A DNA stretch of 64,000 bases from Candidatus Poribacteria bacterium (lineage in GTDB: Bacteria > Poribacteria > WGA-4E > WGA-3G): positions 4,288,001 to 4,352,000 of the forward strand of contig OZ240248.1 of NCBI GenBank assembly GCA_965198235.1, written 5' to 3'. A model generated the notes under the pieces. The model had not been told where the DNA came from. It was given only the letters and a program-made list of their open reading frames with translations, and searched no databases. Below, one piece after another: positions 27,895 through 49,521 of the stretch (within the stretch, counting starts at the first letter, position 1; every line of letters begins with the position of its first letter). The translations under genes were made by a program, and so were the position numbers.

Positions 27895-28206
27895 ATGAAG
27901 ATTAGGAATTTAATTCGGTAATGTGGAGGGTCCATCGTCTGAACTGTGATTTCTCTGATTCAGGACTTACGCAAATTGAGCACACGGTGGTAGATTTTGC
28001 CTTTTAAACCCCCTAAATCCCCCTTATCAGGGGGACTTATGAACGCGCTGCGTAAATCCTATGATTATATGATTTATGTGATGAGAGAACTTCTTGGTTT
28101 AGAATCTCGCTTACAGGATTACCGAAATATTTATTTAAACTTCATATAACGGCACTATAAGCACTATTTAGTTCCGTAGGTTGGGTTGAGCCTCGCGAAA
28201 CTCAAT
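27895..28206. repeat. Nested cluster of MITE/REP-like elements
   Basis: Outer IR ATGAAG..TTCGGTAAT / ATTACCGAA..CTTCAT; inner IR AGGACTTACGCA / TGCGTAAATCCT; central CCCCCT..AGGGGG hairpin; REP GTAGGTTGGGTTGAG at 28176. Confidence 0.7.
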
Positions 28207-29997: not shown

Positions 29998-30240
29998 TCA
30001 TGTTCCGGAAACTAAAGAACGGGCAATGAATTGCCCTACTACAAACGGGCTTTGGGTTCATAATCATGCTCCAGAAATCCTCGGCGGGTACTGTGGTTCA
30101 ATATACCCTTAAGACGGCTGAGGCATCGCGTAGGTTGGGTTGAACGCAGTGAAACCCAACACTCTATCAAAGGCGTGGATACACAGAAAGCCCAAAAATC
30201 CGCGAAATCTGTGAAATCCGCGAGAATCCGCGATTCAGAC
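29990..30240. repeat. Cluster of three repeat families
   Basis: ~22-bp direct repeat (29990-30011, 30056-30077) around REP GGGCAATGAATTGCCCTACTAC; REP GTAGGTTGGGTTGAACGCAGTGAAACCCAAC (30130-30160); 9-bp-period element ending ATCCGCGATTCAGAC at 30240. Confidence 0.75.
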
Positions 30241-38904: not shown

Positions 38905-39678
38905 ATGAAAATTTACATTCTAACCGACTTAGAAGGGGTTGCGATGGTATCCCGCTTCAGTCAAACCCGTGAAGAAGGTCCCCAGAAACAGACAGCCATG
39001 AAATTATTGACGCAGGAGTTAAATGCTGCTGTTGATGGCATTCTTGATGTGGATGCAGACGCAGAAATTGTGGTCTGGGATGGACACGGGACTGGCGGCA
39101 TTGATGTGCTCGAATTTCATCCGAAGGCGAAACTCATAGCGCGGGGTCCTATCCGTCCGCCCTACTATCTTGACACGACCTATGACGCGCTCTTTTTCTT
39201 AGGACAACACGCCATGGCAGGCACGCCAAACGCTCCGTTGAGTCATACGTATTCTTCTTTGTCAATTGAATACTACAAACTCAACGGGAAAATGATCGGA
39301 GAATTCGGATGCCGTGCAGCACTCGCAGGCACTTTCAATGTCCCAACGGTTTTCATCTCTGGCGACGATAAAGCGGTTGCAGAAGCGAAGCAACTTATAC
39401 CCAACATTTATGGCGTTGAAACCAAACAGGGGCTCGGACAGGAACTCGCGTTGCATCTATCACCGCAGCGGTCGCGAGAACTGATTCGAGAGGCTGCCGC
39501 GGATGCTTGCCGACATATCACTGAGATTGCCCCATTGAAAATCGATCCACCTTATACGTTTGAAGTCCGGGTGCTTGAAGGTAAATCAATTGATCGGTAC
39601 CTGCAACAGGGCGCGGTGAAGATTGATGATCGCACCGTCAGTTGGCACAGCGATGACCTTTACGCCCTGTCTATTTAG
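38905..39678 (+). CDS. M55 family D-aminopeptidase (DppA-like)
   Basis: MKIYILTDLEG, DGHG, GQHAMAG, LSHT, GEFG, SGDD. Confidence 0.9.
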   Translation: MKIYILTDLEGVAMVSRFSQTREEGPQKQTAMKLLTQELNAAVDGILDVDADAEIVVWDGHGTGGIDVLEFHPKAKLIARGPIRPPYYLDTTYDALFFLGQHAMAGTPNAPLSHTYSSLSIEYYKLNGKMIGEFGCRAALAGTFNVPTVFISGDDKAVAEAKQLIPNIYGVETKQGLGQELALHLSPQRSRELIREAAADACRHITEIAPLKIDPPYTFEVRVLEGKSIDRYLQQGAVKIDDRTVSWHSDDLYALSI

Positions 39679-39679
39679 C

Positions 39680-42600
39680 ATGTCAAACCAGAACACATCT
39701 CTCCAGTCCGGCATCCGAGATAACCTTCGCCGTGGAACAGTTTATGAATTCTTAGCACAAGAAATCAAAAACGGCTCCCTTCTCTCCGTTGTATCCGCAT
39801 ACTTCACCATCAACGCCTTTGAGGCACTGCAAAAACCGCTGAACCAAATAGACAATCTCCGCTTTCTGTTTGGCGACCCGGATTTTATCAAAAGTCTCGA
39901 CCCGAGTAATACCGAGAAAAAAGCGTTTGGAATTACGGACACAGGCTTGGAACTCAGTAAGCAACTCCAACAGAAACCGATCGCGAAAGCCTGTGCCGAA
40001 TGGATAAAAGAGAAGGTCGAAATCCGATCAACACGAGAATCAAACCTCCTCCACGGGAAAATGTATCACATCGCCAATAATGGTGTTGAAAAGGCGATCA
40101 TGGGCAGCTCGAACTTCACCATGCGCGGTTTAGGGTTAACGCAGGAAAGCAACAACATTGAACTGAATCTGGAGGTGGATAGCGACCGCGACCGCAGCGA
40201 CCTGAAAGCATGGTTTGATGAAATCTGGAATGACAACAAACTCGTTGAAGATGTCAAGGGGAAAGTCCTCGCTACATTAGGACAGATAGGCAAAGATCAC
40301 GCGCCAGAACTCATCTATTACAAAACCCTCTACGAACTTTTTCGTGATGAGATCGAAACACGGAAAACTAACGATCAAACCCTTGAAGACACGCATCTGT
40401 ATGACACCAAAATCTGGGAAACGTTGTATGAGTTTCAGAAAGAGGGCGTGAAGAGTGTGATTGCCCGTCTATTACGGCACAACGGCTGTATCTTAGCAGA
40501 CAGCGTCGGTTTAGGAAAAACCTACACGGCACTCGCGGTTATCAAATTCTTTGAATTGCGAAACGAACGTGTGCTCGTCCTATGTCCTAAAAAACTGCAT
40601 GACAACTGGGCACTCTATCCCGCCTATAACTCGCAAGACACGAATCCATTCCTTGATGACAAGTTCGGCTACACGCTGCTGTCGCATACCGACCTCTCCC
40701 GTTACACGGGTGAATCCGGTGGCGTTAATTTGGAAAATTTCAATTGGCGTAATTTCGACATGATAGTGATTGACGAATCACACAATTTCCGCAACGACAC
40801 CAAACCTACCCGTGATGACGACGGCAACTTCGTCCGACACAGTCGCTACACACGGCTTTTGGAGGAGGTTATCAAGAAAGGCACGAAAACAAAGGTGCTG
40901 ATGCTTTCGGCAACACCGGTAAACACCTCGCTCACCGACCTTCGTAATCAGATTTACCTGATGACCGAAAAACGTGAGGATGCCTTCAGGAAAAGTTTGG
41001 GGATCGGTAATATCCGTTCAATGCTACAGCAAGCACAAAAGGCATTCAAGACATGGGAGGAGGACGGAGAAGAGAACGGGAAAAAAGACAAAGCGAAGTT
41101 GCTGGAAACACTCGGTGCCGATTTCTTCCAATTGCTCGGGGGTGTCTCTATCGCCCGTTCCCGACGGCATATTAAAACCTTCTATGCCGACGAAATAGAC
41201 CGGATCGGAGACTTCCCGACACCGCAGAAACCAGAAAATTTCCACCCACCGACCGACTTGACAGGTGAACTCTCCTACAAAGCCTTAGCAGATCAGATAG
41301 GCGAGTTTACACTCTCCATCTATCAACCTTCCAGTTATGTCATCAGCGAGGCAGCGAAACAGCGGTTAGCAGACGAAAAACAGAAATTTCGTTTCAACCA
41401 AGCAGATCGTGAGCGATTCCTTATCGGCATGATGCAGACCAACTTTCTTAAGCGTTTGGAAAGTTCCGCACACTCCCTCTCGGAAACGCTTGAGCGCACC
41501 GTCGGCAAAATTGACGCTATGCTGAAGAAGATTCACAAATATGAACAAAATCCACGTATACAAGACGCACAAGCCGACGTTCTACCTGATGGCGATGAAG
41601 ACGATGAGGAATTTTTGATTAACCGAGCGCGGAATCCTTATCACCTCAGTGAGTTGGATTGCACCCGCTGGAAAAAAGATCTCATCAAAGACAAACAGAT
41701 CTTAACCGCCGCGTGGGACAAAATCAAATCCATCACACCCGCCCGGGATGGCAAACTCAAAGCAATCAAGGCGCGTATTAGAGACAAGGTACTAAACTCA
41801 ACGACTGACAAGGACGGAAAAACCAACCGCAAATTGTTAGTCTTCACGACCTTCAAAGATACGGCGGTCTATCTCTATGAAAACCTGTCAGATATTGCGG
41901 CTGAATTAAACCTGAACATGGCGATGGTTTCAGGAAGCAGCACATACACCACCTGCGGACGAAACAACTTCAACGCTATCCTAACCAATTTTGCTCCGCG
42001 TGCGCGAGGACGTAGCGATAGCACAAGCGAGGACGTTGATCTCCTCATCGTCACGGACTGTATCTCAGAAGGGCAAAATCTTCAGGACTGCGATACGGTA
42101 CTGAACTATGACATCCACTGGAACCCTGTCCGTATTATCCAACGCTTTGGGAGAATTGATCGAATCGGCAGTCGTAATACTACGGTGAAGATGATCAACT
42201 ACTGGCCCACCGAAGACATGGAGGTTTACCTCCGTTTACAAAGCCGCGTGGAATCCCGTATGGCACTCGCCGACGCAGCCGCAAGCGGTGATGACGACCC
42301 GCTGAATGAATTCACTTATGAACAGGCACAGATGGAACTCAATTTCCGTGATGAGCAATTGAAGCAGCTCCGCGAAGATGTCTTAGACCTCGACGACCTC
42401 TCCGACGGAATCGTCATGAGCGATTTTACGTTTGATTACTTCTTTGCCCAATTGCTAAAGTATCTCGAAAGAAACAGGGCGGAATTAGAAGCCACACCGA
42501 AGGGGGCGTACGCCGTCACTACCAACGAAAACAGTCCGACAGAAACCGGTGTCATCTTTTTCCTCCAGCAACTTAATGCCACGACGGATATTGAGAAAAA

Positions 42601-42973
42601 GACACCGAGTCCCATCTACCCTTATTATACTGTCTACATCCGTAAAAACGGCGACATCCGTTACGGATGTGCAAACGCCAAACAGGTGTTAGATCTGTTT
42701 GAAGCGTCGGTTGTCGGAAGAAGCGATGAATTGCCAGAGTTGTGTCTCCAATTCGACCAAGAGACACAAAACGGCAAGAATATGGAAGCGTATAATAAAC
42801 TTCTGAACGCCGTCATTGCTCACATCACACGATCACATCAAAAAACGCAAACCCAAAACTTGGGCAGAGGTGGCACGCGCGGTTTCAAACTACCAGTCGC
42901 ATCCGAAGCCCCCAGGGACTCCAGCGATTTTGAACTGGTAACGTGGCTAATCATCACAACACGACCATCTTGA
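39680..42973 (+). CDS. PLD-nuclease / SNF2-type helicase fusion (restriction subunit-like)
   Basis: HGKMY..GSSNFT PLD motif; ADSVGLGKT, IDESHNFRN, LSATP, SEGQNLQD, QRFGRIDRIG. Confidence 0.9.
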   Translation: MSNQNTSLQSGIRDNLRRGTVYEFLAQEIKNGSLLSVVSAYFTINAFEALQKPLNQIDNLRFLFGDPDFIKSLDPSNTEKKAFGITDTGLELSKQLQQKPIAKACAEWIKEKVEIRSTRESNLLHGKMYHIANNGVEKAIMGSSNFTMRGLGLTQESNNIELNLEVDSDRDRSDLKAWFDEIWNDNKLVEDVKGKVLATLGQIGKDHAPELIYYKTLYELFRDEIETRKTNDQTLEDTHLYDTKIWETLYEFQKEGVKSVIARLLRHNGCILADSVGLGKTYTALAVIKFFELRNERVLVLCPKKLHDNWALYPAYNSQDTNPFLDDKFGYTLLSHTDLSRYTGESGGVNLENFNWRNFDMIVIDESHNFRNDTKPTRDDDGNFVRHSRYTRLLEEVIKKGTKTKVLMLSATPVNTSLTDLRNQIYLMTEKREDAFRKSLGIGNIRSMLQQAQKAFKTWEEDGEENGKKDKAKLLETLGADFFQLLGGVSIARSRRHIKTFYADEIDRIGDFPTPQKPENFHPPTDLTGELSYKALADQIGEFTLSIYQPSSYVISEAAKQRLADEKQKFRFNQADRERFLIGMMQTNFLKRLESSAHSLSETLERTVGKIDAMLKKIHKYEQNPRIQDAQADVLPDGDEDDEEFLINRARNPYHLSELDCTRWKKDLIKDKQILTAAWDKIKSITPARDGKLKAIKARIRDKVLNSTTDKDGKTNRKLLVFTTFKDTAVYLYENLSDIAAELNLNMAMVSGSSTYTTCGRNNFNAILTNFAPRARGRSDSTSEDVDLLIVTDCISEGQNLQDCDTVLNYDIHWNPVRIIQRFGRIDRIGSRNTTVKMINYWPTEDMEVYLRLQSRVESRMALADAAASGDDDPLNEFTYEQAQMELNFRDEQLKQLREDVLDLDDLSDGIVMSDFTFDYFFAQLLKYLERNRAELEATPKGAYAVTTNENSPTETGVIFFLQQLNATTDIEKKTPSPIYPYYTVYIRKNGDIRYGCANAKQVLDLFEASVVGRSDELPELCLQFDQETQNGKNMEAYNKLLNAVIAHITRSHQKTQTQNLGRGGTRGFKLPVASEAPRDSSDFELVTWLIITTRPS

Positions 42974-43079
42974 CTTTTTATAATAGTACATGGTATTATA
43001 TTTCAAACATTGATGTAGATGCTGATTGGTTCAACCTCGCGTAGCCACTTATCGCTTATAGGTAGACGAAAAATCGTCA

Positions 43080-43418
43080 ATGCGTAACGCACGTCCGCGG
43101 ACAATAAATTTTTACCAGATTCCAAACGGTCCTGAACCTTTTACAAGATGGTTACTTTCAATTCGGGATACAAGCATACGACGGATTCAAGCGCGAATTA
43201 TTGTTATTGAAACCGGCAATCTTGGCGACCATAGATCTGTAGGTGATGGGGTTTGGGAACTACGACTTGACTTCGGACCAGGCTATCGTATCTATTATGG
43301 TGAAGTAGATAACACAGTTGTTCTGCTCCTCTGTGGAGGCGACAAGTCTTCGCAGAGACGGGATATAGAACGCGCAAAAAACTATTGGAAAGAATACAAA
43401 GAGAGGCACAAACAATGA
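43080..43418 (+). CDS. RelE/ParE-superfamily toxin (addiction module killer type)
   Basis: GNLGDHRSVGDGVWELRLDFGPGYRIYY..LLLCGGDKSSQRRDIERA. Confidence 0.9.
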   Translation: MRNARPRTINFYQIPNGPEPFTRWLLSIRDTSIRRIQARIIVIETGNLGDHRSVGDGVWELRLDFGPGYRIYYGEVDNTVVLLLCGGDKSSQRRDIERAKNYWKEYKERHKQ

Positions 43419-43804
43419 AAATCTACGGAACATGGCATGCTTTCCTCATTGAACAACTCAAGGAAAAAGAAGATGTGGGAGGGTTTCTCGATGCAGTCAT
43501 CGAAGAATATCAGATCCACCGGAATCTCGCCACAGTTCAATTGGCTCTTCAGTATGTCGTTGAAGCACAAGGCGGAATTTCCGAACTCGCCCCAAAAATA
43601 GACATTGAACCACAAGTACTCTCGGAAATGTTAGATAGCACTAAAACACCAAAGACTGACACGCTTAGAACCGTACTCATTGCTTTGGGATGCCATCCTT
43701 CAATTAAGTCTTTAGAAACTGTAAATACCCCTACTGCAGCCGCAACTGATGGATCTGCAGTTGCACCCATAGAGGCTGTAGACCCTAACCGTAACCTTGA
43801 TTAA
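43415..43804 (+). CDS. HTH antitoxin (addiction module antidote type)
   Basis: ATGA overlap with toxin; ALQYVVEAQGGISELA..PKTDTLRTVLIALG. Confidence 0.8.
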   Translation: MKIYGTWHAFLIEQLKEKEDVGGFLDAVIEEYQIHRNLATVQLALQYVVEAQGGISELAPKIDIEPQVLSEMLDSTKTPKTDTLRTVLIALGCHPSIKSLETVNTPTAAATDGSAVAPIEAVDPNRNLD

Positions 43805-43942
43805 TACCACGTTTCAATAAAGGAAAGAGGGATACACGCCTGAATAGAACTGCATAAGTCGTTAGAACCTATTCACAAATAGTTGAAAATAATAGGGGCT
43901 GGCACACACTGCCACCCCATTTTTTATAGGAATTACAGCATA

Positions 43943-46900
43943 ATGAACAAGGAAGCGATCAAATCTACCTTAGCAGCCATATCCGCTGGTGATCTTTTGG
44001 AAAAATCAAAAGACCTCTTGGCAACTTTAGGTTACTGTAGTGAACGGACGCTTGAACTTTCAGGAACCGTGGACGATTTCATTCAGGAATTTGAGGCACT
44101 GAATCCAAACACCAAGACTGAACAGGAATTCCGCAACAACGCCGAATCCGTGAAACTCGTGTTCCAGTTTACCAGCGACGAAATCGCTGATGACCTGCAG
44201 CAGACGCTTTTTGAATCCGCTTCTTTCGACAAGGGAAATACAGACAGTTTTCTTTTCTGTGCGGTTGAATTAAAGGATAACAATTATTCACGGACCAAAT
44301 ACGCCGAGTTTACACGAGAAATCAATAAGCGATTGGGCGCGCCGACTGTGGTGTTATTCCGCGTTGTAAATCGTCTGATCGTCGCTTTTGTCGGTCGCCG
44401 TCCACACAAGGCTGACACAGATCGCGATGTCCTGGAGCAGGTCACACTGATTAAAGACATCCGCCTAAACAATCCGCACCGTGCACATCTGGACATTCTG
44501 TCCGAACTCTCACTTGAAGAATGTGCTACGTGGATGGATGCCAACAGAAAACCAAAAAACTTCGACGGTTTGCTGGCAGCGTGGCTCGCCAAACTGGACA
44601 CCGAAGAACTCAATAAGCAATTCTATCGGAAACTGTTCGCATGGTATGAATGGGCAGTAGAGGAAGCGAAGTTTCCAACAGATGAAAACCGCGTTTTGGA
44701 ACCGGCGGAACATGTCATCCGCCTCATCACACGCCTGCTCTTTATCTGGTTCATCAAGGAAAAAGGACTGGTCGCCGAGGAGTTGTTTAACAAATCACAA
44801 ATCCAAGGACTGTTGAAAGAGGATGCCTTCGATAACGGTGATTCCTACTATCGTGTTGTGTTACAAAACCTCTTTTTCGCCACGCTCAACACCGAGATAG
44901 GCAATCGAAAGTTTAGCACCGTTGGCTACTCCACTCATCGTGATTTCTCACGGTACCGTTATAAAAATCAGATGCGCGACCCTGACAAACTATTGGGCAT
45001 GTTTGTTACAATACCTTTCATCAACGGTGGTTTGTTCGATTGTCTGGATAGCTGGGAAGCAACGGGTGAAGATAGTTACCGTATAGATTGCTTTTCCGAC
45101 AAACAGTACAAGAAACTGTCCATCCCGAACCGTCTCTTTTTTGACAACGTCCGAGGGCTGCTTCCCTTACTTGAGCATTACAAATTCACCGTTGAGGAAA
45201 ACACACCGATTGAGCAGGAGGTGGCACTTGACCCAGAATTGCTCGGCAGAGCATTTGAAAATCTACTCGCTGCCTATAACCCGGAAACCGGTGCAACGGT
45301 GCGTAAACAGACCGGATCCTACTACACCCCGCGTGCTATTGTCGATTACATGGTGGAAGAAGCGTTAGTCGCTACGTTATCCCAAAAATGCGACCCAACC
45401 GATGGCGACACCAAACTGTGGGATGAACGTTTACATTATCTCCTCGACTATGCCCAAACTTTCGATGATGCCAACGAATGGTTTGATGATCTTGAGACAG
45501 ATGGAATTGTCCGAGCAATTTCCGAACTCAAGATACTCGATCCGGCAGTCGGCTCTGGAGCGTTCCCAATGGGAATGCTGCACAAACTGACGCTTGCACT
45601 GCGGAGACTTGACCCAGACAACAGCCGATGGGAAAAGTTACAGAAGGAACGCGCGATACAACGAGCAGAAATAGCGTTTGATACACAGCACGACCCAACG
45701 CGGCGTGAAGAACTCATCGAAATCGATGAAACCTTTAAACGTTACCGAGATTCAGACTTCGGACGGAAGTTGTATCTAATCCAAAACAGCATCTTCGGCG
45801 TTGACATCCAACCCGTGGCGTGCCAGATTGCTAAACTCCGATTTTTCATATCTCTCGCAATCGAGCAGGAACCGGAGCAAGACGCAGAGAACTTCGGTAT
45901 CAAACCGTTGCCGAATTTGGAGACGCGCTTTATCGCGGCAAACACACTGATAGGGCTCACAGCACAACGGATGCTGACAAGTAACACCGCGCGAGATTTG
46001 GAACAGCAACTGAGCGACAACCGCGAGCGGCATTTCCACGCCACCGCTCGTCAGCGTAAACGTGAATGCAAGCGAAAAGACGAGAAATTGCGCCGGGAAT
46101 TGGCAGCGGAATTAAAAAGCATGGGTATGCCCGACAATGATGCTGAAAGGATTGCTCGTTGGGATCCTTATGACCAAAACGCCACAGCCAATTGGTTTGA
46201 CTCGGAGTGGATGTTTGGAATCATTGACGGGTTCGATGTCGTAATTGGCAATCCCCCATATATTAATATTGAGAATCTTCCTATTGCAACCAAGGATTAT
46301 CTGTTCAATAACTATCGATCCTGTCAAGGAAGAACTGATATTTACATTGCTTTCCTTGAAAAATCTATTTCTATCCTTAGTGTCAAGGGAATTATGGGTT
46401 TCATTCTTCCTTACGCTTTCGCTATGCAAAAATACGGCGAGAAAATGCGTCAGATCCTGATAGAAAATCATACTATTCGGGAAATCGTGGATGCCAGTAG
46501 TTACAGAATTTTTGAGAACGCTGTTGTGTATAACATCATCTTGACAGTTGGTAATCATAAAGTGCAAGACCATACGAAAGTCCGCTTACATCACAGCAAT
46601 GCAGATTTTGACGAGCGTGGAGGCGAGGAATTCTTGATTGATCAACACACCTTTGCAAAACTCAAAGATTCTCGCTTTGAAACCAACACTCATGTATTTG
46701 ACAGTATCGAGATAAAAGAAAAGATATGGCGGAGCTCCGTTCGTTTCGACCAGATTTGCCTTGTTGCCTACGGTGCTCGACTCAATCACCGATCAAAAAA
46801 GTTGGGAAAAACGCACTATATCAGCCGGTCTCCAGTTTCAGTCAGCAAGAGGTTTTGCGAAGGAAAGAGCATTGAACGTTACTCGTTTGCTCAGGTGGGT

Positions 46901-47437
46901 TGGTTGAACTATAGACCAGATGAACACTACAACCCGATGTTTCCAGAGTTGTTTGAAAACAAGAAACTAATGTTCATCAATGTTGTGAAAGATCGGTTGC
47001 GCTTCGCTTATGACGATGAAGGTTTTTACAACAGTCACACAGTTGTAAATTGCGTCCGATTGGATTTGCTTTTAGGCGTATCCCATGTCTCCGCACGTCG
47101 CGCGGTCCGAAGTGTTGATATCAATCTCGCCAAGAAGTATGATTACAAATTTCTTCTGGGAGTTCTAAATTCTAACTTTATGAACTGGTACTTCCGTAAC
47201 TTCTTAAGCGAGGGGCTACACTTTTATCCGAATGATGCCAAAGCGTTGCCTATCCCTGATGTAGCACCTGAACAACAAACTCCTATTATTGAACTTGTGG
47301 ATCAAATCCTTGATACCAAACGGGATAACTCGGATGCAGACACTTCTGTTTTTGAAAATAAGATTGACAAACTGGTATACGTCTTATACGGCTTAACCGA
47401 CGATGAGATTGCGATTGTGGAGGATGCGGTGGAGTAA
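43943..47437 (+). CDS. Eco57I/Type IIG-like N6-adenine DNA methyltransferase with TaqI-like target recognition domain
   Basis: LNGGLF-like FINGGLF, TGSYYTP, ILDPAVGSGAF, FDVVIGNPPY, C-terminal IDKLVYVLYGLT. Confidence 0.9.
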   Translation: MNKEAIKSTLAAISAGDLLEKSKDLLATLGYCSERTLELSGTVDDFIQEFEALNPNTKTEQEFRNNAESVKLVFQFTSDEIADDLQQTLFESASFDKGNTDSFLFCAVELKDNNYSRTKYAEFTREINKRLGAPTVVLFRVVNRLIVAFVGRRPHKADTDRDVLEQVTLIKDIRLNNPHRAHLDILSELSLEECATWMDANRKPKNFDGLLAAWLAKLDTEELNKQFYRKLFAWYEWAVEEAKFPTDENRVLEPAEHVIRLITRLLFIWFIKEKGLVAEELFNKSQIQGLLKEDAFDNGDSYYRVVLQNLFFATLNTEIGNRKFSTVGYSTHRDFSRYRYKNQMRDPDKLLGMFVTIPFINGGLFDCLDSWEATGEDSYRIDCFSDKQYKKLSIPNRLFFDNVRGLLPLLEHYKFTVEENTPIEQEVALDPELLGRAFENLLAAYNPETGATVRKQTGSYYTPRAIVDYMVEEALVATLSQKCDPTDGDTKLWDERLHYLLDYAQTFDDANEWFDDLETDGIVRAISELKILDPAVGSGAFPMGMLHKLTLALRRLDPDNSRWEKLQKERAIQRAEIAFDTQHDPTRREELIEIDETFKRYRDSDFGRKLYLIQNSIFGVDIQPVACQIAKLRFFISLAIEQEPEQDAENFGIKPLPNLETRFIAANTLIGLTAQRMLTSNTARDLEQQLSDNRERHFHATARQRKRECKRKDEKLRRELAAELKSMGMPDNDAERIARWDPYDQNATANWFDSEWMFGIIDGFDVVIGNPPYINIENLPIATKDYLFNNYRSCQGRTDIYIAFLEKSISILSVKGIMGFILPYAFAMQKYGEKMRQILIENHTIREIVDASSYRIFENAVVYNIILTVGNHKVQDHTKVRLHHSNADFDERGGEEFLIDQHTFAKLKDSRFETNTHVFDSIEIKEKIWRSSVRFDQICLVAYGARLNHRSKKLGKTHYISRSPVSVSKRFCEGKSIERYSFAQVGWLNYRPDEHYNPMFPELFENKKLMFINVVKDRLRFAYDDEGFYNSHTVVNCVRLDLLLGVSHVSARRAVRSVDINLAKKYDYKFLLGVLNSNFMNWYFRNFLSEGLHFYPNDAKALPIPDVAPEQQTPIIELVDQILDTKRDNSDADTSVFENKIDKLVYVLYGLTDDEIAIVEDAVE

Positions 47438-47439
47438 AT

Positions 47440-47564
47440 TGTCTGAATCGCGGATTACACGGATTGCGCAGATTTCACGGACTTTTGGGATTTGCATCAT
47501 CCGTGTCAGTAGGATAAGTTGTCTGAATCACGGATTACACGGATTACACAGATTTCACGGATTT
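47440..47564 (+). repeat. Left repeat array of GxxExxY locus (2 x 45 bp, 9-bp internal period)
   Basis: TGTCTGAATCGCGGATTACACGGATTGCGCAGATTTCACGGACTT (47440-47484) and TGTCTGAATCACGGATTACACGGATTACACAGATTTCACGGATTT (47520-47564). Confidence 0.9.
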
Positions 47565-47627
47565 CAACCTGTGCTACATATACCCCTTGTGATTCAGATA
47601 GTCATAAGAATGAGGGATACTGCAAAA

Positions 47628-48035
47628 ATGAACAATAATCTAAAACATAAGGATGTAACTCAGAAGATTATCGGAGCTGCCTTTGAAGTACATAAGTTTT
47701 TAGGGAGCGGTTTCCAAGAGGTAATTTACCAACGAGCATTGGCATTTGAAATGAGGAAAGCAGGACTGGAGTTTGCCCGGGAAATTGAGCAGGATATTTT
47801 CTATAAGGATTTTCCAGAACCTATCGGCACACGTAGAGCAGATTTTGTGGTCGCAGGAAATGTGTTGGTGGAATTAAAGGCTATTACGGCATTAAAAGAT
47901 GTGCACGAGGCACAACTTTTAAATTATTTGAAAGCGTATCGGTTAGAAATCGGTTTATTACTCAATTTCGGGTCAAAGAGTTTGGAAATCAAAAGACTGA
48001 TTCTTACACAACCCACTCGCAGATTCAAGAGCTAA
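47628..48035 (+). CDS. GxxExxY protein (PD-(D/E)xK nuclease family)
   Basis: IIGAAFEVHKFLGSGFQEVIYQRAL, RADFVV..VELKA, QLLNYL, GLLLNFG. Confidence 0.95.
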   Translation: MNNNLKHKDVTQKIIGAAFEVHKFLGSGFQEVIYQRALAFEMRKAGLEFAREIEQDIFYKDFPEPIGTRRADFVVAGNVLVELKAITALKDVHEAQLLNYLKAYRLEIGLLLNFGSKSLEIKRLILTQPTRRFKS

Positions 48036-48059
48036 CGGAAGCAATAAAACAGCCTCTTC

Positions 48060-48373
48060 AATCCGCGTCATCTGCGTAATCCGTGATAATCCGCGATTCT
48101 GACAAATACACTCCCAATGATATAACAGAGCAAAACATGACACATAAGCCAGAAAGATAACCCCAATTAGAGAAACCCAAAAATCCGCGTCATCCGTGAA
48201 AATTCGAGATTCAGACAGACGCGCAGAGCAGTTCCGTGACAGCGACTCTTTCAATCCGCGTCATCCGCGTCATCCGCGTCATCCGCGATTCAGACAATAG
48301 AGAGAACCCGCCTCCAAACTTCAAGATTTCTCAATCTGCATCTGCGTCATCCGTGACAATCCGCGATTCTGAC
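48060..48373 (-). repeat. Right repeat array of GxxExxY locus (4 copies, inverted relative to left array)
   Basis: Copies at 48060-48104, 48182-48217, 48253-48296, 48333-48373, each ending GATTC(A/T)GAC. Confidence 0.9.
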
Positions 48374-48458
48374 TTGTTCGCAAAATTGAGATTGCTAAAC
48401 GAGTGCATACATGGTATGATTTAACATTAGAGGGAATCCGCATCGTGGAGAACAGAAT

Positions 48459-48653
48459 TTGAACGCGCAAAAAACCGAACTGAACAGGATTTTGGAGATA
48501 ATCGGTAGAATAGCGGAAACAACTGCCGATGGCGACTACATTTACCGCGGTGAACCTCAACACTATGAGGAAGTATCCTCAAGTCTGTGGCGTGAATGCA
48601 GAAAAGAAGGAGACATAAAACATGCAAACACGGACAGATCAGGCATCTTATGA
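48459..48653 (+). pseudogene. N-terminal fragment of an FRG-domain protein
   Basis: DYIYRGE..VSSSLWR matches the start of FRG domains; frame ends after 64 aa, overlapping the TPR ORF. Confidence 0.6.
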
Positions 48654-49428
48654 AAACGCCATCCAGCACTATAACAAAGCAATTGAACGGAGACCCACCT
48701 TTGCCCAAGCCTATAACTATCGAGGCATCGCTTATGGCAATATAGGCGAAATTGACCGAGCCATTGAAGACTTTAATACAGCGATAAGACGCAAGGAAAA
48801 CTATGCCGAAGCCTACAGTAACCGTGGTGGTGCCTATCGTCTCAAAGGTGACTATGACCGCGCCATCAAAGACTGTAACACCGCGATAAGACTGGACCCC
48901 AATTTAGCAGAGGCATACAACATCCGTGGGGTGGCTTATCGACTCAAAGGCGAGTTTGACCTCGCCGTTGAAGACTATAACACCGCGATAGAACTTAATC
49001 CAAGTTTTGCTTATGCCTATTACAATCGAGGCATCGCCTACCAAGAAGAAAGACACGAGTTTGATCGCGCCATCAACGACTATAACAAGGCAATAGAGCT
49101 GAGACCAGACCTTGTCCATCCCTACAACAACCGCGGTAACGCTTACTCCCAAAAAGGCAAATATGAATTTGCCATCAAAGACTATGATAAGGCGATACAA
49201 CTCAAACCCGATTTACCAGAAGCACATTACAATCGCGGTATGGCGTTTTTACACTTACAAGAATGGAAAAAAGCCAAATCAAACCTGACTGATGCAAGAG
49301 ACATGCAAGAAAATATCATCATTGAGAACTTTGGTAAAGACTACGGAAGCATTGCAGACTTTGAGCACAAACATAATGTTAAACTACCGGAAGACATTGC
49401 CGCAATGCTAACTCCCCTACAGGTATAG
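48622..49428 (+). CDS. Tetratricopeptide repeat protein
   Basis: About six 34-aa repeats AYxNRGxAY..AIxDYNxAIxLxP. Confidence 0.9.
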   Translation: MQTRTDQASYENAIQHYNKAIERRPTFAQAYNYRGIAYGNIGEIDRAIEDFNTAIRRKENYAEAYSNRGGAYRLKGDYDRAIKDCNTAIRLDPNLAEAYNIRGVAYRLKGEFDLAVEDYNTAIELNPSFAYAYYNRGIAYQEERHEFDRAINDYNKAIELRPDLVHPYNNRGNAYSQKGKYEFAIKDYDKAIQLKPDLPEAHYNRGMAFLHLQEWKKAKSNLTDARDMQENIIIENFGKDYGSIADFEHKHNVKLPEDIAAMLTPLQV

Positions 49429-49454
49429 CACAGGTATAGCAGCGAAACAAAAAC

Positions 49455-49521
49455 TGTCTCCTTAACGGATTACCTGATGTTACAGATTATCAATCCGCGT
49501 CATCTGTGGCATCCATGATAA
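49455..49521. repeat. Degenerate head-to-head pair of the 9-bp-period repeat without a gene
   Basis: TGTCT..ACGGATTACCTGATGTTACAGATT followed by CAATCCGCGTCATCTGTGGCATCCATGATAA. Confidence 0.6.

Follow-up and report, generated by a model that had tools for sequence, protein, structure and literature searches.

Why should a gene for a small putative nuclease lie between two sets of oppositely oriented repeats? This is the question raised by positions 47440-48373 of the window, by which we mean the whole 64,000-nt stretch of Candidatus Poribacteria DNA analysed here. Two forward repeats lie 5' of the gene and four inverted repeats 3' of it, with their caps pointing outward on both flanks (Table 1); an earlier note on this DNA had described this layout, and both the sequence itself and a repeat finder confirmed it. 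Each copy consists of a cap TGTCTGAATC and three to four tandem units of 9 bp (hence N9) and has no internal palindrome; hairpins are formed by doublets only. Copy 1 begins 2 nt past the stop codon of a methyltransferase gene, 35 nt separate copies 1 and 2, and the inverted copies 3, 4, 5 and 6 are separated by 77, 35 and 35 nt, all of these gaps being unique in the genome. Taken in their two orientations, the six copies are mutually 74-94% alike, and the repeat finder reported two arm pairs, 47438-47481 with 48255-48298 (82% complementary over 44 nt) and 47519-47563 with 48253-48297 (80% complementary over 45 nt). A sigma-70-like promoter scan of the leader upstream of the gene gave no match. 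The three gene-less copies that the earlier note had placed elsewhere in the window are a mixed group: one is a good inverted N9 copy, one is a degenerate doublet and the third is of a different, related type (C7).

Table 1. Features of the GxxExxY locus and gene-less repeat copies elsewhere in the window
Feature	Position	Strand	Remarks
Short solo copy, related C7 type (GTCTGAACTGTGATT...)	27937-27965	+	C7 flanks another GxxExxY clade in relatives
Solo N9 copy, gene-less	30190-30240	-	Adjoins GTTGGGTT...AACCCAAC hairpin element
Type IIG-like / Eco57I-type DNA methyltransferase	43883-47437	+	3' end is the left insertion boundary
Repeat copy 1, N9	47440-47484	+	Cap TGTCTGAATC and 4 units
Repeat copy 2, N9	47520-47564	+	90% identity to copy 1 over 50 nt
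63-bp leader	47565-47627	+	From inner forward copy to start codon; unique in genome
GxxExxY gene, 135 aa, PD-(D/E)XK nuclease fold	47628-48035	+	
Repeat copy 3, N9, inverted	48060-48104	-	Cap outward; pairs with copy 2 in RNA fold
Repeat copy 4, N9, inverted	48182-48217	-	Shorter, degenerate; 80% to reference
Repeat copy 5, N9, inverted	48253-48297	-	Four perfect CGCGGATGA units; pairs with copy 1 in RNA fold
Repeat copy 6, N9, inverted	48333-48373	-	Outermost right end
Degenerate gene-less doublet	49455-49521	.	Left cap weak, right cap absent

The 135-aa product matches the GxxExxY family TIGR04256 (3.1e-39, 133.9 bits, cut-off 35) and PF13366 (PDDEXK_3; 1.8e-37, 128.7 bits, cut-off 22), the latter being its sole Pfam match. 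The motif residues G28, E31 and Y34 and the putative catalytic residues D72, E82 and K84 are invariant in 78 aligned homologues, as they are in a smaller alignment of eight. When an AF2 model of the protein (pLDDT 78.4, pTM 0.73) was compared with known structures in VIA-align, restriction-endonuclease-like folds aligned best and the best rows were all PD-(D/E)XK proteins (3ijm, Z 7.2; BglII, 7.0; BpuSI, 6.8; Hjc, 6.3; Cas4, 6.2), with Z values that are middling throughout their range of 7.2-6.1. Foldseek with the same model returned nothing from the PDB at E <= 0.001, a PDB sequence search returned nothing at E <= 1, and PADLOC matched the protein to no defence family. Profile searches gave only PD-(D/E)XK family matches and none to the known transposase classes (DDE, serine, tyrosine or HUH). 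As an orphan family, PF13366/GxxExxY is very widespread; a table in the 2012 survey of the PD-(D/E)XK superfamily (PMC3424549) enters its function as 'Unknown'.

The earlier note had suggested a partnership of nuclease and repeat resembling that of RAYT genes and REPs, built around a PD-(D/E)XK enzyme, and had proposed asking whether the repeats are any more common beside GxxExxY genes than elsewhere. We made this comparison in 41 + 61 related genomes, where tblastn gave 62 rows, of which 10 fragments shorter than 110 aa were dropped to leave 52 intact genes; a gene was scored as flanked when a cap-plus-unit repeat lay at most 350 bp upstream or 450 bp downstream. All 52 genes are flanked, 44 of them on both sides and 34 with outward-pointing copies on both sides. 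Among 3819 control ORFs from this genome, any repeat was found at 292 (7.6%) and repeats on both sides at 14 (0.37%). The enrichment therefore stood. Moreover, the repeats are of three types and the proteins of three clades, and repeat type tracks protein clade. In a maximum-likelihood tree N9 marks one clade of 33 rows (support 100/99), E8 marks six rows of clade B and C7 marks 12 rows of clade C; the labels change three times on the tree (the minimum is 2), against a mean of 17.4 when labels were shuffled, and none of 200 shuffles came as low. Seven genomes hold two GxxExxY clades, each with its own repeat type. At eight of the 33 clade-A loci there is no outward upstream copy and the flanks are direct, not inverted.

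The ends are also conserved far beyond these relatives. Homologue loci were found in Bacteroidota, Chlorobiota, Latescibacterota, Cyanobacteria, Spirochaetes, Fibrobacterota, Nitrospirae and other phyla, and the GxxExxY proteins are 54-83% identical across phyla. At 76 loci, mostly from other phyla, we searched within 300 bp of the gene for GTCTGAA together with at least three GAT cores spaced 7-11 nt apart. This motif lies near the gene at 63 of the 76 loci and points outward on both sides at 38; of 141 control windows, shifted by 1050 bp, 11 had the motif near and one had it on both sides. Flank-to-flank inverted-repeat scores had a median of 21 against 11 in the shifted controls, and 39 of the 76 loci exceeded the control maximum. 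Shifted windows were used here in place of a control of mismatched pairs (95th percentile 24), which was set aside as unusable because similar ends are common to loci from different phyla. The period of the units is 9 bp in 88 of 110 loci, and across loci from many phyla the GxxExxY gene is the only conserved protein-coding sequence between the ends.

Within this genome the repeat is far more abundant than the gene. On the main contig the cap TGTC[TA]GAATC has 42 + 54 occurrences, where base composition would predict about 10.5 per strand, and reversed-pattern controls for the repeat search gave 0 in all 61 genomes. The genome holds some 80 N9 copies, mostly solo single ends, and two PF13366 genes above the cut-off; 68 of 80 N9 caps fall outside long ORFs, even though ORFs cover 85% of the contig. 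Both genes are bracketed by repeats, the second by one forward copy (C1:2715444) and two inverted ones (2716067 and 2716142). The two gene copies are only 82% identical, so there is no sign of recent self-copying in this genome. No close forward-inverted N9 pair was found in the genome apart from those around the two GxxExxY genes, and the solo copies are thus not classical two-ended MITEs. Other forward-inverted pairs, up to 6 kb apart, enclose unrelated contents (a formamidase, an IS3-type integrase, Asd, a type ISP R-M gene, a YhgA-like gene, an ankyrin gene and others), and no other consistently bracketed gene was found.

In the genus as a whole the gene is patchily distributed (30 of 61 genomes) and its presence goes with higher repeat numbers. 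Genomes with an intact clade-A gene carry a mean of 23.6 N9 copies (n=25) and those without it 11.7 (n=36); the corresponding values for assemblies of at most four contigs are 28.1 (n=12) and 14.2 (n=16). Since the genomes are kin, tests of this association overstate its significance, and since N9 and E8 counts are themselves correlated (Spearman 0.59), part of it may reflect general repeat load. The data do not support the idea that solo repeats strictly need a cognate gene in the same genome, the repeats being abundant where the cognate gene, or any PF13366 gene, is lacking: G068 has 50 E8 and 12 N9 copies and no PF13366 gene, G063 has 30 and G016 has 40 N9 copies without a clade-A gene and G014 has 54 E8 copies without a clade-B gene.

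Comparison of orthologous sites revealed that the whole block of gene plus ends is polymorphic for presence and absence. In the sister species G064 and G052 the junction of hsdM and hsdS, which share an ATGA overlap, is empty, 3 bp lying between the anchors, whereas in this genome the same junction carries a clean insert of 719 bp, made up of a repeat, the leader, the gene and two inverted repeats; its left junction is the same in four further genomes with a filled site (G060, G014, G012 and G020). At both of its junctions the insert shows the cap core TTCAGA(CG), a sequence that belongs to the element's own cap and that the empty site lacks; no target-site duplication was evident at this one filled/empty pair. 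The 3' end of the methyltransferase gene shows five states across the genomes compared: no repeat (G007), a cap remnant (G074), a two-unit solo copy (G069), a gene-less doublet of 90 bp (the sister species G063), and the array with the gene seen in this window. The doublet in G063, with a predicted folding energy of -28.7 kcal/mol (z -7.3), is followed by DNA matching 48373-48433 of the window; its right half is the counterpart, at the same site, of copy 6. In G063, G022 and G069 the repeat cap provides the stop codon of the methyltransferase. Joints between a forward and an inverted copy in metagenome contigs (for example 47481 to 48060) were rejected as evidence of excision because their sides are shorter than 45 nt, the likeness is 90% and the communities are mixed, so that they may derive from other loci or organisms.

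Taken together, the constant presence of repeats at 52 of 52 genes in relatives, the co-variation of repeat type and clade, the retention of the ends across phyla and one filled/empty site give the partnership strong comparative support. Our favoured explanation, which we consider probable, takes 47440-48373 as a compact selfish cassette, the iterated ends being recognised by the nuclease encoded between them; it would be comparable to REP-RAYT or IS-MITE systems, though its enzyme is different. In such an element a small PD-(D/E)XK nuclease gene (GxxExxY) would be bounded by terminal inverted copies of the repeat that its product recognises, each with a conserved cap (TTGTCTGAAYC) and three to four iterated 9-bp units with a GAT core. 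Several protomers would bind the iterated units, and the enzyme would cut at or near the cap. The resulting breaks could lead host repair to copy or move the gene-plus-ends block into new intergenic sites or operon junctions, possibly by homing-like copying, possibly by cut-and-paste. Gene-less single ends and doublets would then be leftovers, or non-autonomous derivatives that spread.

Other readings of these data deserve consideration. The locus might belong to a domesticated RAYT-like system, in which a low-copy host nuclease creates, trims or maintains dispersed repeats, the gene itself being immobile and the repeats having a host function, such as a role in mRNA stability, termination or chromosome structure. 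Two genes against some 80 N9 copies, the concentration of caps outside long ORFs and the higher repeat numbers where the gene is present would all suit such a system, as would the single-copy state described as typical of RAYTs (PMC5581495), and the very strong conservation of the protein could also mean a host-useful function. However, the patchiness of the gene within the genus, the filled and empty states of one operon junction, the persistence of repeats in gene-less genomes and protein identities of 74-83% across phyla, which fit horizontal spread better than vertical descent, lead us to consider domestication unlikely. Less probable still is a passive cassette, whose ends are acted on by a different recombinase or transposase, with its gene elsewhere, and whose nuclease is cargo of unrelated function, such as an accessory of R-M or defence. 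The direct repeat TTCAGA(CG) at both hsdM/hsdS junctions would fit site-specific recombination by another enzyme, being what is seen in site-specifically recombined cassettes, and solo repeats are plentiful in G068, which has no PF13366 gene. Both gene copies of this genome adjoin R-M genes, as do seven of the 52 loci when scanned widely. Most contexts are, however, not defence-related and the protein has no PADLOC match; the earlier note's placing of the locus in a defence island holds locally, with an HKD+SNF2 helicase and the type IIG-like methyltransferase upstream, but not as a general property of the family. Cargo, moreover, would not need a unit type that co-varies with its clade, would not be the only conserved protein between the ends in many phyla, and would not be alone in being consistently bracketed in this genome.

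The repeats might also act as RNA and not as DNA sites. In that case the inverted flanks would pair in a transcript, and the long stem so formed would either undergo processing, like that of intervening sequences that carry an ORF, or shield the inserted ORF from the operon around it. In a predicted fold of 47430-48385 the ORF is indeed enclosed by pairing of copy 1 with copy 5 and of copy 2 with copy 3 (z -4.2), 50 of 72 loci are co-directional between two same-strand neighbours, and metatranscriptome contigs are identical to 47879-48172 and 48231-48900, an origin in RNA libraries that does not prove transcription. Yet direct flanks at eight of 33 clade-A loci and solo copies that are mostly unpaired single ends do not suit a stem, Rfam matched no family in the region, and pairing in RNA leaves unexplained why unit sequence follows protein clade; we judge an RNA-level device very unlikely, and the pairing may be a mere secondary adaptation of a DNA element. 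The suggestion in the earlier note that the repeats form a repeat-spacer array giving rise to small RNAs, as in CRISPR, found no support. The gaps that would supply guides are similar in length (35, 35, 35 and 77 nt) and unique in the genome, but the repeats run in both orientations with a likeness of only 74-94%, the gaps are tandemly duplicated in relatives (e.g. L022 and L010), 47430-48400 has no match in 50,697 phage and 72,556 plasmid records, and neither an Rfam family nor, among ORFs scanned between 33.7 and 55.9 kb, a cas family was found, all of which makes this origin scarcely credible.

On the reading as a selfish cassette, the GxxExxY element is apparently an undescribed kind of selfish DNA; the searchable literature, outside subscription journals and bioRxiv supplements, held no description of the GxxExxY-repeat association. 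Conserved, clade-matched repeat ends give an orphan family a concrete and testable candidate DNA substrate. Should the block be mobilised by the nuclease, this would represent a new enzymatic route to transposition or homing, in one of the smallest autonomous elements known, and would account for a class of intergenic repeats, made of short tandem units, that is abundant in many phyla. We put forward as a plausible possibility, with less confidence than the cassette itself, that a new class of autonomous mobile elements, the smallest known (~470-650 bp), relies on GxxExxY as its only enzyme: a PD-(D/E)XK nuclease of 120-140 aa would recognise the iterated 9-bp units of the inverted ends around its gene and would drive the spread of the element across more than 10 phyla, with specificity set in part by residue 102 (Glu with TGAT units; Lys, Arg, Val or Gln with GGAT units). 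For genome annotation it is relevant that these cassettes split operons, here hsdM/hsdS and the methyltransferase 3' end, and give stop or start codons to neighbouring genes.

How does this element compare with known systems? It shares with CRISPR short repeats that alternate with unique gaps of roughly constant length beside a nuclease-family gene, and differs in its two orientations, imperfect repeats and duplicated gaps in relatives, and in having neither cas genes nor protospacer matches. PD-(D/E)XK homing endonucleases exist, for example I-Ssp6803I, and like them GxxExxY is a small nuclease gene, patchily distributed in a way that suggests horizontal spread, at sites that are occupied or unoccupied (the G063 doublet; the empty hsdM/hsdS junction). 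In contrast to them, it lies outside any intron or intein and has long iterated inverted ends, and the empty ATGA overlap, which contains no repeat, indicates that insertion is not simply a matter of homing into a copy of its own repeat. The ends of IS21, Tn7 and Mu-type elements begin with TGT and carry iterated subterminal binding sites. GxxExxY elements likewise have terminal inverted ends that start with TGT and continue in iterated short units, with a single small gene between them, gene-less derivatives and insertion into intergenic or operon junctions. They depart from IS elements and MITEs in having no DDE, serine, tyrosine or HUH transposase and no evident target-site duplication at the one filled/empty pair, in gene copies that are 82% identical within a genome and not near-identical, and in gene-less copies that are mostly single ends, with one doublet seen (G063). 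In organisation there is a likeness to REP/REPIN-RAYT (TnpA-REP) systems: there too, inverted short repeats flank a low-copy nuclease-type gene and recur at many places in intergenic DNA, the type of repeat changes with the lineage of the gene, and doublets can fold into hairpins. Here, however, the enzyme is a 135-aa PD-(D/E)XK protein and not an HUH tyrosine transposase, the repeat is a cap followed by a non-palindromic series of 9-bp units and not the GTAG/CGTC-tagged palindrome described for REPs (PMC3733652), and the gene is patchy with near-identity across phyla, in a block of gene plus ends that is polymorphic for insertion.

The GxxExxY gene of the window lies between forward and inverted copies of a repeat, here named N9, and both the sequence and a repeat finder matched the layout proposed in the earlier note almost to the base (table). 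The outer side of each copy is a cap, TGTCTGAATC (or TGTCAGAATC), and inward of it stand three to four units of 9 bp that read CGCGGATGA / CACGGATTA; the repeat is of the GTCTGAATC/GGATTAC type. The repeat finder gives 80-82% complementarity of the outer arms over 44-45 nt. The ORF matches PF13366 (PDDEXK_3, 1.8e-37) and TIGR04256 (GxxExxY, 3.1e-39), both far over cut-offs. A 1184-aa Eco57I / type IIG-like methyltransferase gene stops 2 nt before the first cap, and an HKD+SNF2 helicase (PADLOC 'HKD+Snf2', 2.7e-106) is encoded upstream of it, which puts the locus on the margin of a small defence module. For the GxxExxY protein itself PADLOC gave no match. The helicase (HKD(PLD)+SNF2, PADLOC C3a139, with DrmD-like matches too) and the methyltransferase, separated by two small unassigned ORFs, are a candidate two-gene module; the methyltransferase scores 2e-61 against REase_MTase_IIG and 95 bits against PglX, the latter far below the PglX cut-off. 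Downstream of the repeats, a 64-aa ORF overlaps a TPR gene. Segments matching window 48340-48600 and 48604-49500 lie ~550 bp apart in many sister genomes, and G000, the genome carrying the window, has therefore probably lost sequence from the gene that precedes the TPR part.

Features of the two GxxExxY loci of G000 and states of the methyltransferase 3' end (the window's own site) across related genomes
Feature	Position or genome	Strand	Basis or description
N9 forward repeat copies, ~45 bp	47440-47484, 47520-47564	+	sequence and repeat finder
GxxExxY ORF, 135 aa, between forward and inverted copies	47628-48035	+	PF13366 and TIGR04256 profile matches
N9 inverted repeat copies	48060-48104, 48182-48217, 48253-48297, 48333-48373	-	sequence and repeat finder
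Candidate defence module	39623-47437		helicase and methyltransferase
64-aa ORF	48459-48653		
TPR gene	48622-49428		
Second GxxExxY gene of G000	C1 (main contig):2715603-2716010		forward copy 2715444; inverted copies 2716067 and 2716142
Methyltransferase 3' end, state 1	G007		no repeat; ATGA overlap to TIR-domain gene
Methyltransferase 3' end, state 2	G074		cap remnant
Methyltransferase 3' end, state 3	G069		two-unit solo
Methyltransferase 3' end, state 4	G063		90-bp forward-plus-inverted doublet, then DNA as in window 48373-48433
Methyltransferase 3' end, state 5	window (G000)		arrays plus gene

Using the cap plus first unit as an anchor and allowing one mismatch, we counted 80 N9 copies in G000 (5.17 Mb, 2 contigs), together with 46 copies of a sister type, E8, which has the N9 cap and AGGATT units, and 22 of a third type, C7, GTCTGAACTGTGATT. 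Long ORFs make up 85% of the contig and hold 12 of the 80 N9 caps, 5 of the 46 E8 caps and 1 of the 22 C7 caps. Only two PF13366 genes in G000 score over cut-off; their proteins are 82% identical, and the second gene is bracketed like that of the window. Almost all solo copies are single ends, and there is no close forward-inverted N9 pair in the genome besides those around its two GxxExxY genes. At C1:359707-359760 a solo N9 copy runs directly into an inverted bare cap (...GGATTTTCAGACA); the resulting 53 bp have TGTCTGAA / TTCAGACA at either end and possibly represent a minimal two-ended form. C7-type caps cluster at C1:1355587-1377747, several of them 230-900 bp apart, in this genome that has no clade-C GxxExxY gene. 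Genome-wide, 14 or more solo N9 copies are followed, each time at the same distance, by a second dispersed element with the hairpin GTTGGGTT...AACCCAAC (window 30120-30175), a pattern suggestive of composite repeats.

Among relatives, 21 of 41 at order level have PF13366 genes, as do 30 of the 61 genus genomes. The 58 loci that we fetched gave 62 tblastn rows, from which 10 fragment rows shorter than 110 aa were dropped, leaving 52 intact genes. Every one has a cap-plus-unit repeat close by (limits, 350 bp on the upstream and 450 bp on the downstream side); repeats stand on both sides of 44, and in 34 these face outward on both. For 3819 control long ORFs of G000 the figures are 292 (7.6%) with any nearby repeat and 14 (0.37%) with repeats on both sides, and thus the association with GxxExxY genes as against other genes, on which the earlier note had staked its proposal, held. 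The 52 proteins fall into three clades on a maximum-likelihood tree, and flank type tracks clade: N9 flanks all 33 proteins of clade A (support 100/99), E8 six of clade B and C7 twelve of clade C. The tree requires three label changes where the minimum possible is two, the extra change being a single tied locus (L013), while shuffled labels require 17.4 on average and none of 200 shuffles fell as low as three. In each of seven genomes with genes of two clades, either clade has its own repeat type, so that co-location in repeat-rich islands alone fails to explain the pattern. The clade C element is very compact, ~470 bp from cap to cap, its ORF starting within the final unit of the upstream repeat and ending inside the downstream one.

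The arrangement extends to other phyla. A one-genome-per-species scan, of which we kept the best 80 of 589 relatives, returned as nearest named records Candidatus Poribacteria MAGs, at 82-83% identity; the 80 also include proteins of 54-80% identity from Bacteroidota, Chlorobiota, Latescibacterota, Spirochaetes, Fibrobacterota, Nitrospirae, Calditrichia, Cyanobacteria (Nostoc, Mastigocoleus, Limnoraphis) and others. At the 76 loci with enough flank (four were dropped), the best flank-to-flank inverted match had a median score of 21 versus 11 in windows shifted by 1050 bp, and 39 exceeded the control maximum of 20. An end motif, defined as GTCTGAA with no more than one mismatch and, after it, three or more GAT cores spaced 7-11 nt apart, occurs within 300 bp at 63 of 76 loci versus 11 of 141 controls, and outward on both sides at 38 versus 1. 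The end consensus is TTGTCTGAAYCAYGGATT, and the 9-bp unit period is found at 88 of 110 loci with recognisable ends. Cap and architecture thus go together with the protein, conserved across a very wide phylogenetic span.

Our neighbour scan covered 101 of 148 neighbour ORFs at 52 of 76 wide loci. Restriction-modification genes adjoin seven of the 52, histidine-kinase genes precede nine, and the remaining neighbours are ordinary genes such as purA, trpC, prfB, pheT, valS and MacB-type permeases; both neighbours are on the strand of the nuclease gene at 50 of 72 loci. The typical position of the cassette, gene plus repeat ends, is thus within an operon and in its direction, with no tie to defence islands. 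The nine loci at which the cassette follows a histidine-kinase ORF (HisKA / HATPase_c) are all Bacteroidota-type (L080, L081, L085, L087, L090, L091, L095, L096 and L097), marking either a common ancestral site or a favoured target.

Filled and empty sites were found at two places. In two relatives (G064 and G052) an ATGA overlap joins the type I genes hsdM and hsdS, the latter going on with ...GTTATCCTGAATATAAA. The same anchors stand 719 bp apart in G000, and the DNA between them comprises, in order, a bare cap core, one forward repeat, the leader and gene, and then two inverted repeats, the first partial and the second full; the left junction recurs in G060, G014, G012 and G020. The cap core TTCAGA(CG) stands in direct orientation at both insert ends and is absent from the empty site, so no classical target duplication is seen there. 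The ATG from which the displaced hsdS (L025:1962-3254) now starts lies between the two inverted copies; the gene reads in frame through the outer copy (MDDNKIREIRLIRENPRF...) into its native N-terminus RRYPEYK, and the repeat thus donates a start codon and a 17-aa leader. The second place, the methyltransferase 3' end, exists in five states (table). The G063 doublet forms, as single-stranded DNA, a hairpin with an energy of -28.7 kcal/mol (z -7.3). In G063, G022 and G069 the stop codon lies inside the cap (GTC TGA; L036:2440-2460, L034:2715-2730 and L032 ~1525). The last codons after the conserved ...IVEG are replaced by the repeat in these three genomes.

Association, clade co-variation and insertion polymorphism were each tested independently in this analysis, and we regard a selfish nuclease with its own ends as the probable nature of the cassette. 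Across the genus, N9 counts are about twofold higher with an intact clade-A gene (23.6 versus 11.7; 28.1 versus 14.2 in near-complete assemblies). Genomes without the gene carry up to 40 N9 copies, and the top four E8 counts (54, 50, 40 and 37) all belong to genomes in which no intact clade-B gene occurs; in one of these, G068, there is no PF13366 gene whatever. Either the repeats outlast the gene, or something else spreads them, or nucleases of one clade act on more than one repeat type by way of the shared cap; N9 and E8 counts correlate across the genus (rho 0.59). These gene-less copies and this correlation, with the single-ended solos and the direct rather than inverted flanks at 8 of 33 clade-A loci, limit the selfish-cassette claim.

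A domesticated, RAYT-like role for the nuclease seems rather doubtful to us, and a passive cassette moved by another recombinase unlikely. That the repeats serve as an RNA-stem device we hold to be quite improbable. The CRISPR-like array that the earlier note had offered as an alternative is almost certainly not what these repeats are. We found no description of a GxxExxY gene-repeat association in the searchable literature, and the one survey listing PF13366 enters its function as unknown where the family appears (PMC3424549).

In 78 aligned homologues G28, E31, Y34, D72, E82 and K84 are invariant. Among 80 loci with clear units, 49 have G and 29 have T immediately 5' of the GAT core, and the protein column covarying best with this base is position 102 (YLKAY; adjusted mutual information 0.61): all 29 TGAT loci have Glu there, the GGAT loci K/R/V/Q. 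This is a lead only, since phylogeny confounds the test, although clade B (GGAT, Val/Gln) and clade C (TGAT, Glu) are sisters. Foldseek and a PDB sequence search with the nuclease gave no significant match. An AlphaFold model (pLDDT 78.4, pTM 0.73) shows an alpha-beta core as in the restriction-endonuclease fold, and the middling VIA-align scores establish this fold class and no closer function: the nearest structures are PD-(D/E)XK proteins, namely 3ijm (Z 7.2), BglII (7.0) and the BpuSI nuclease domain (6.8), followed by Hjc (6.3), Cas4 (6.2) and TnsA (4.6).
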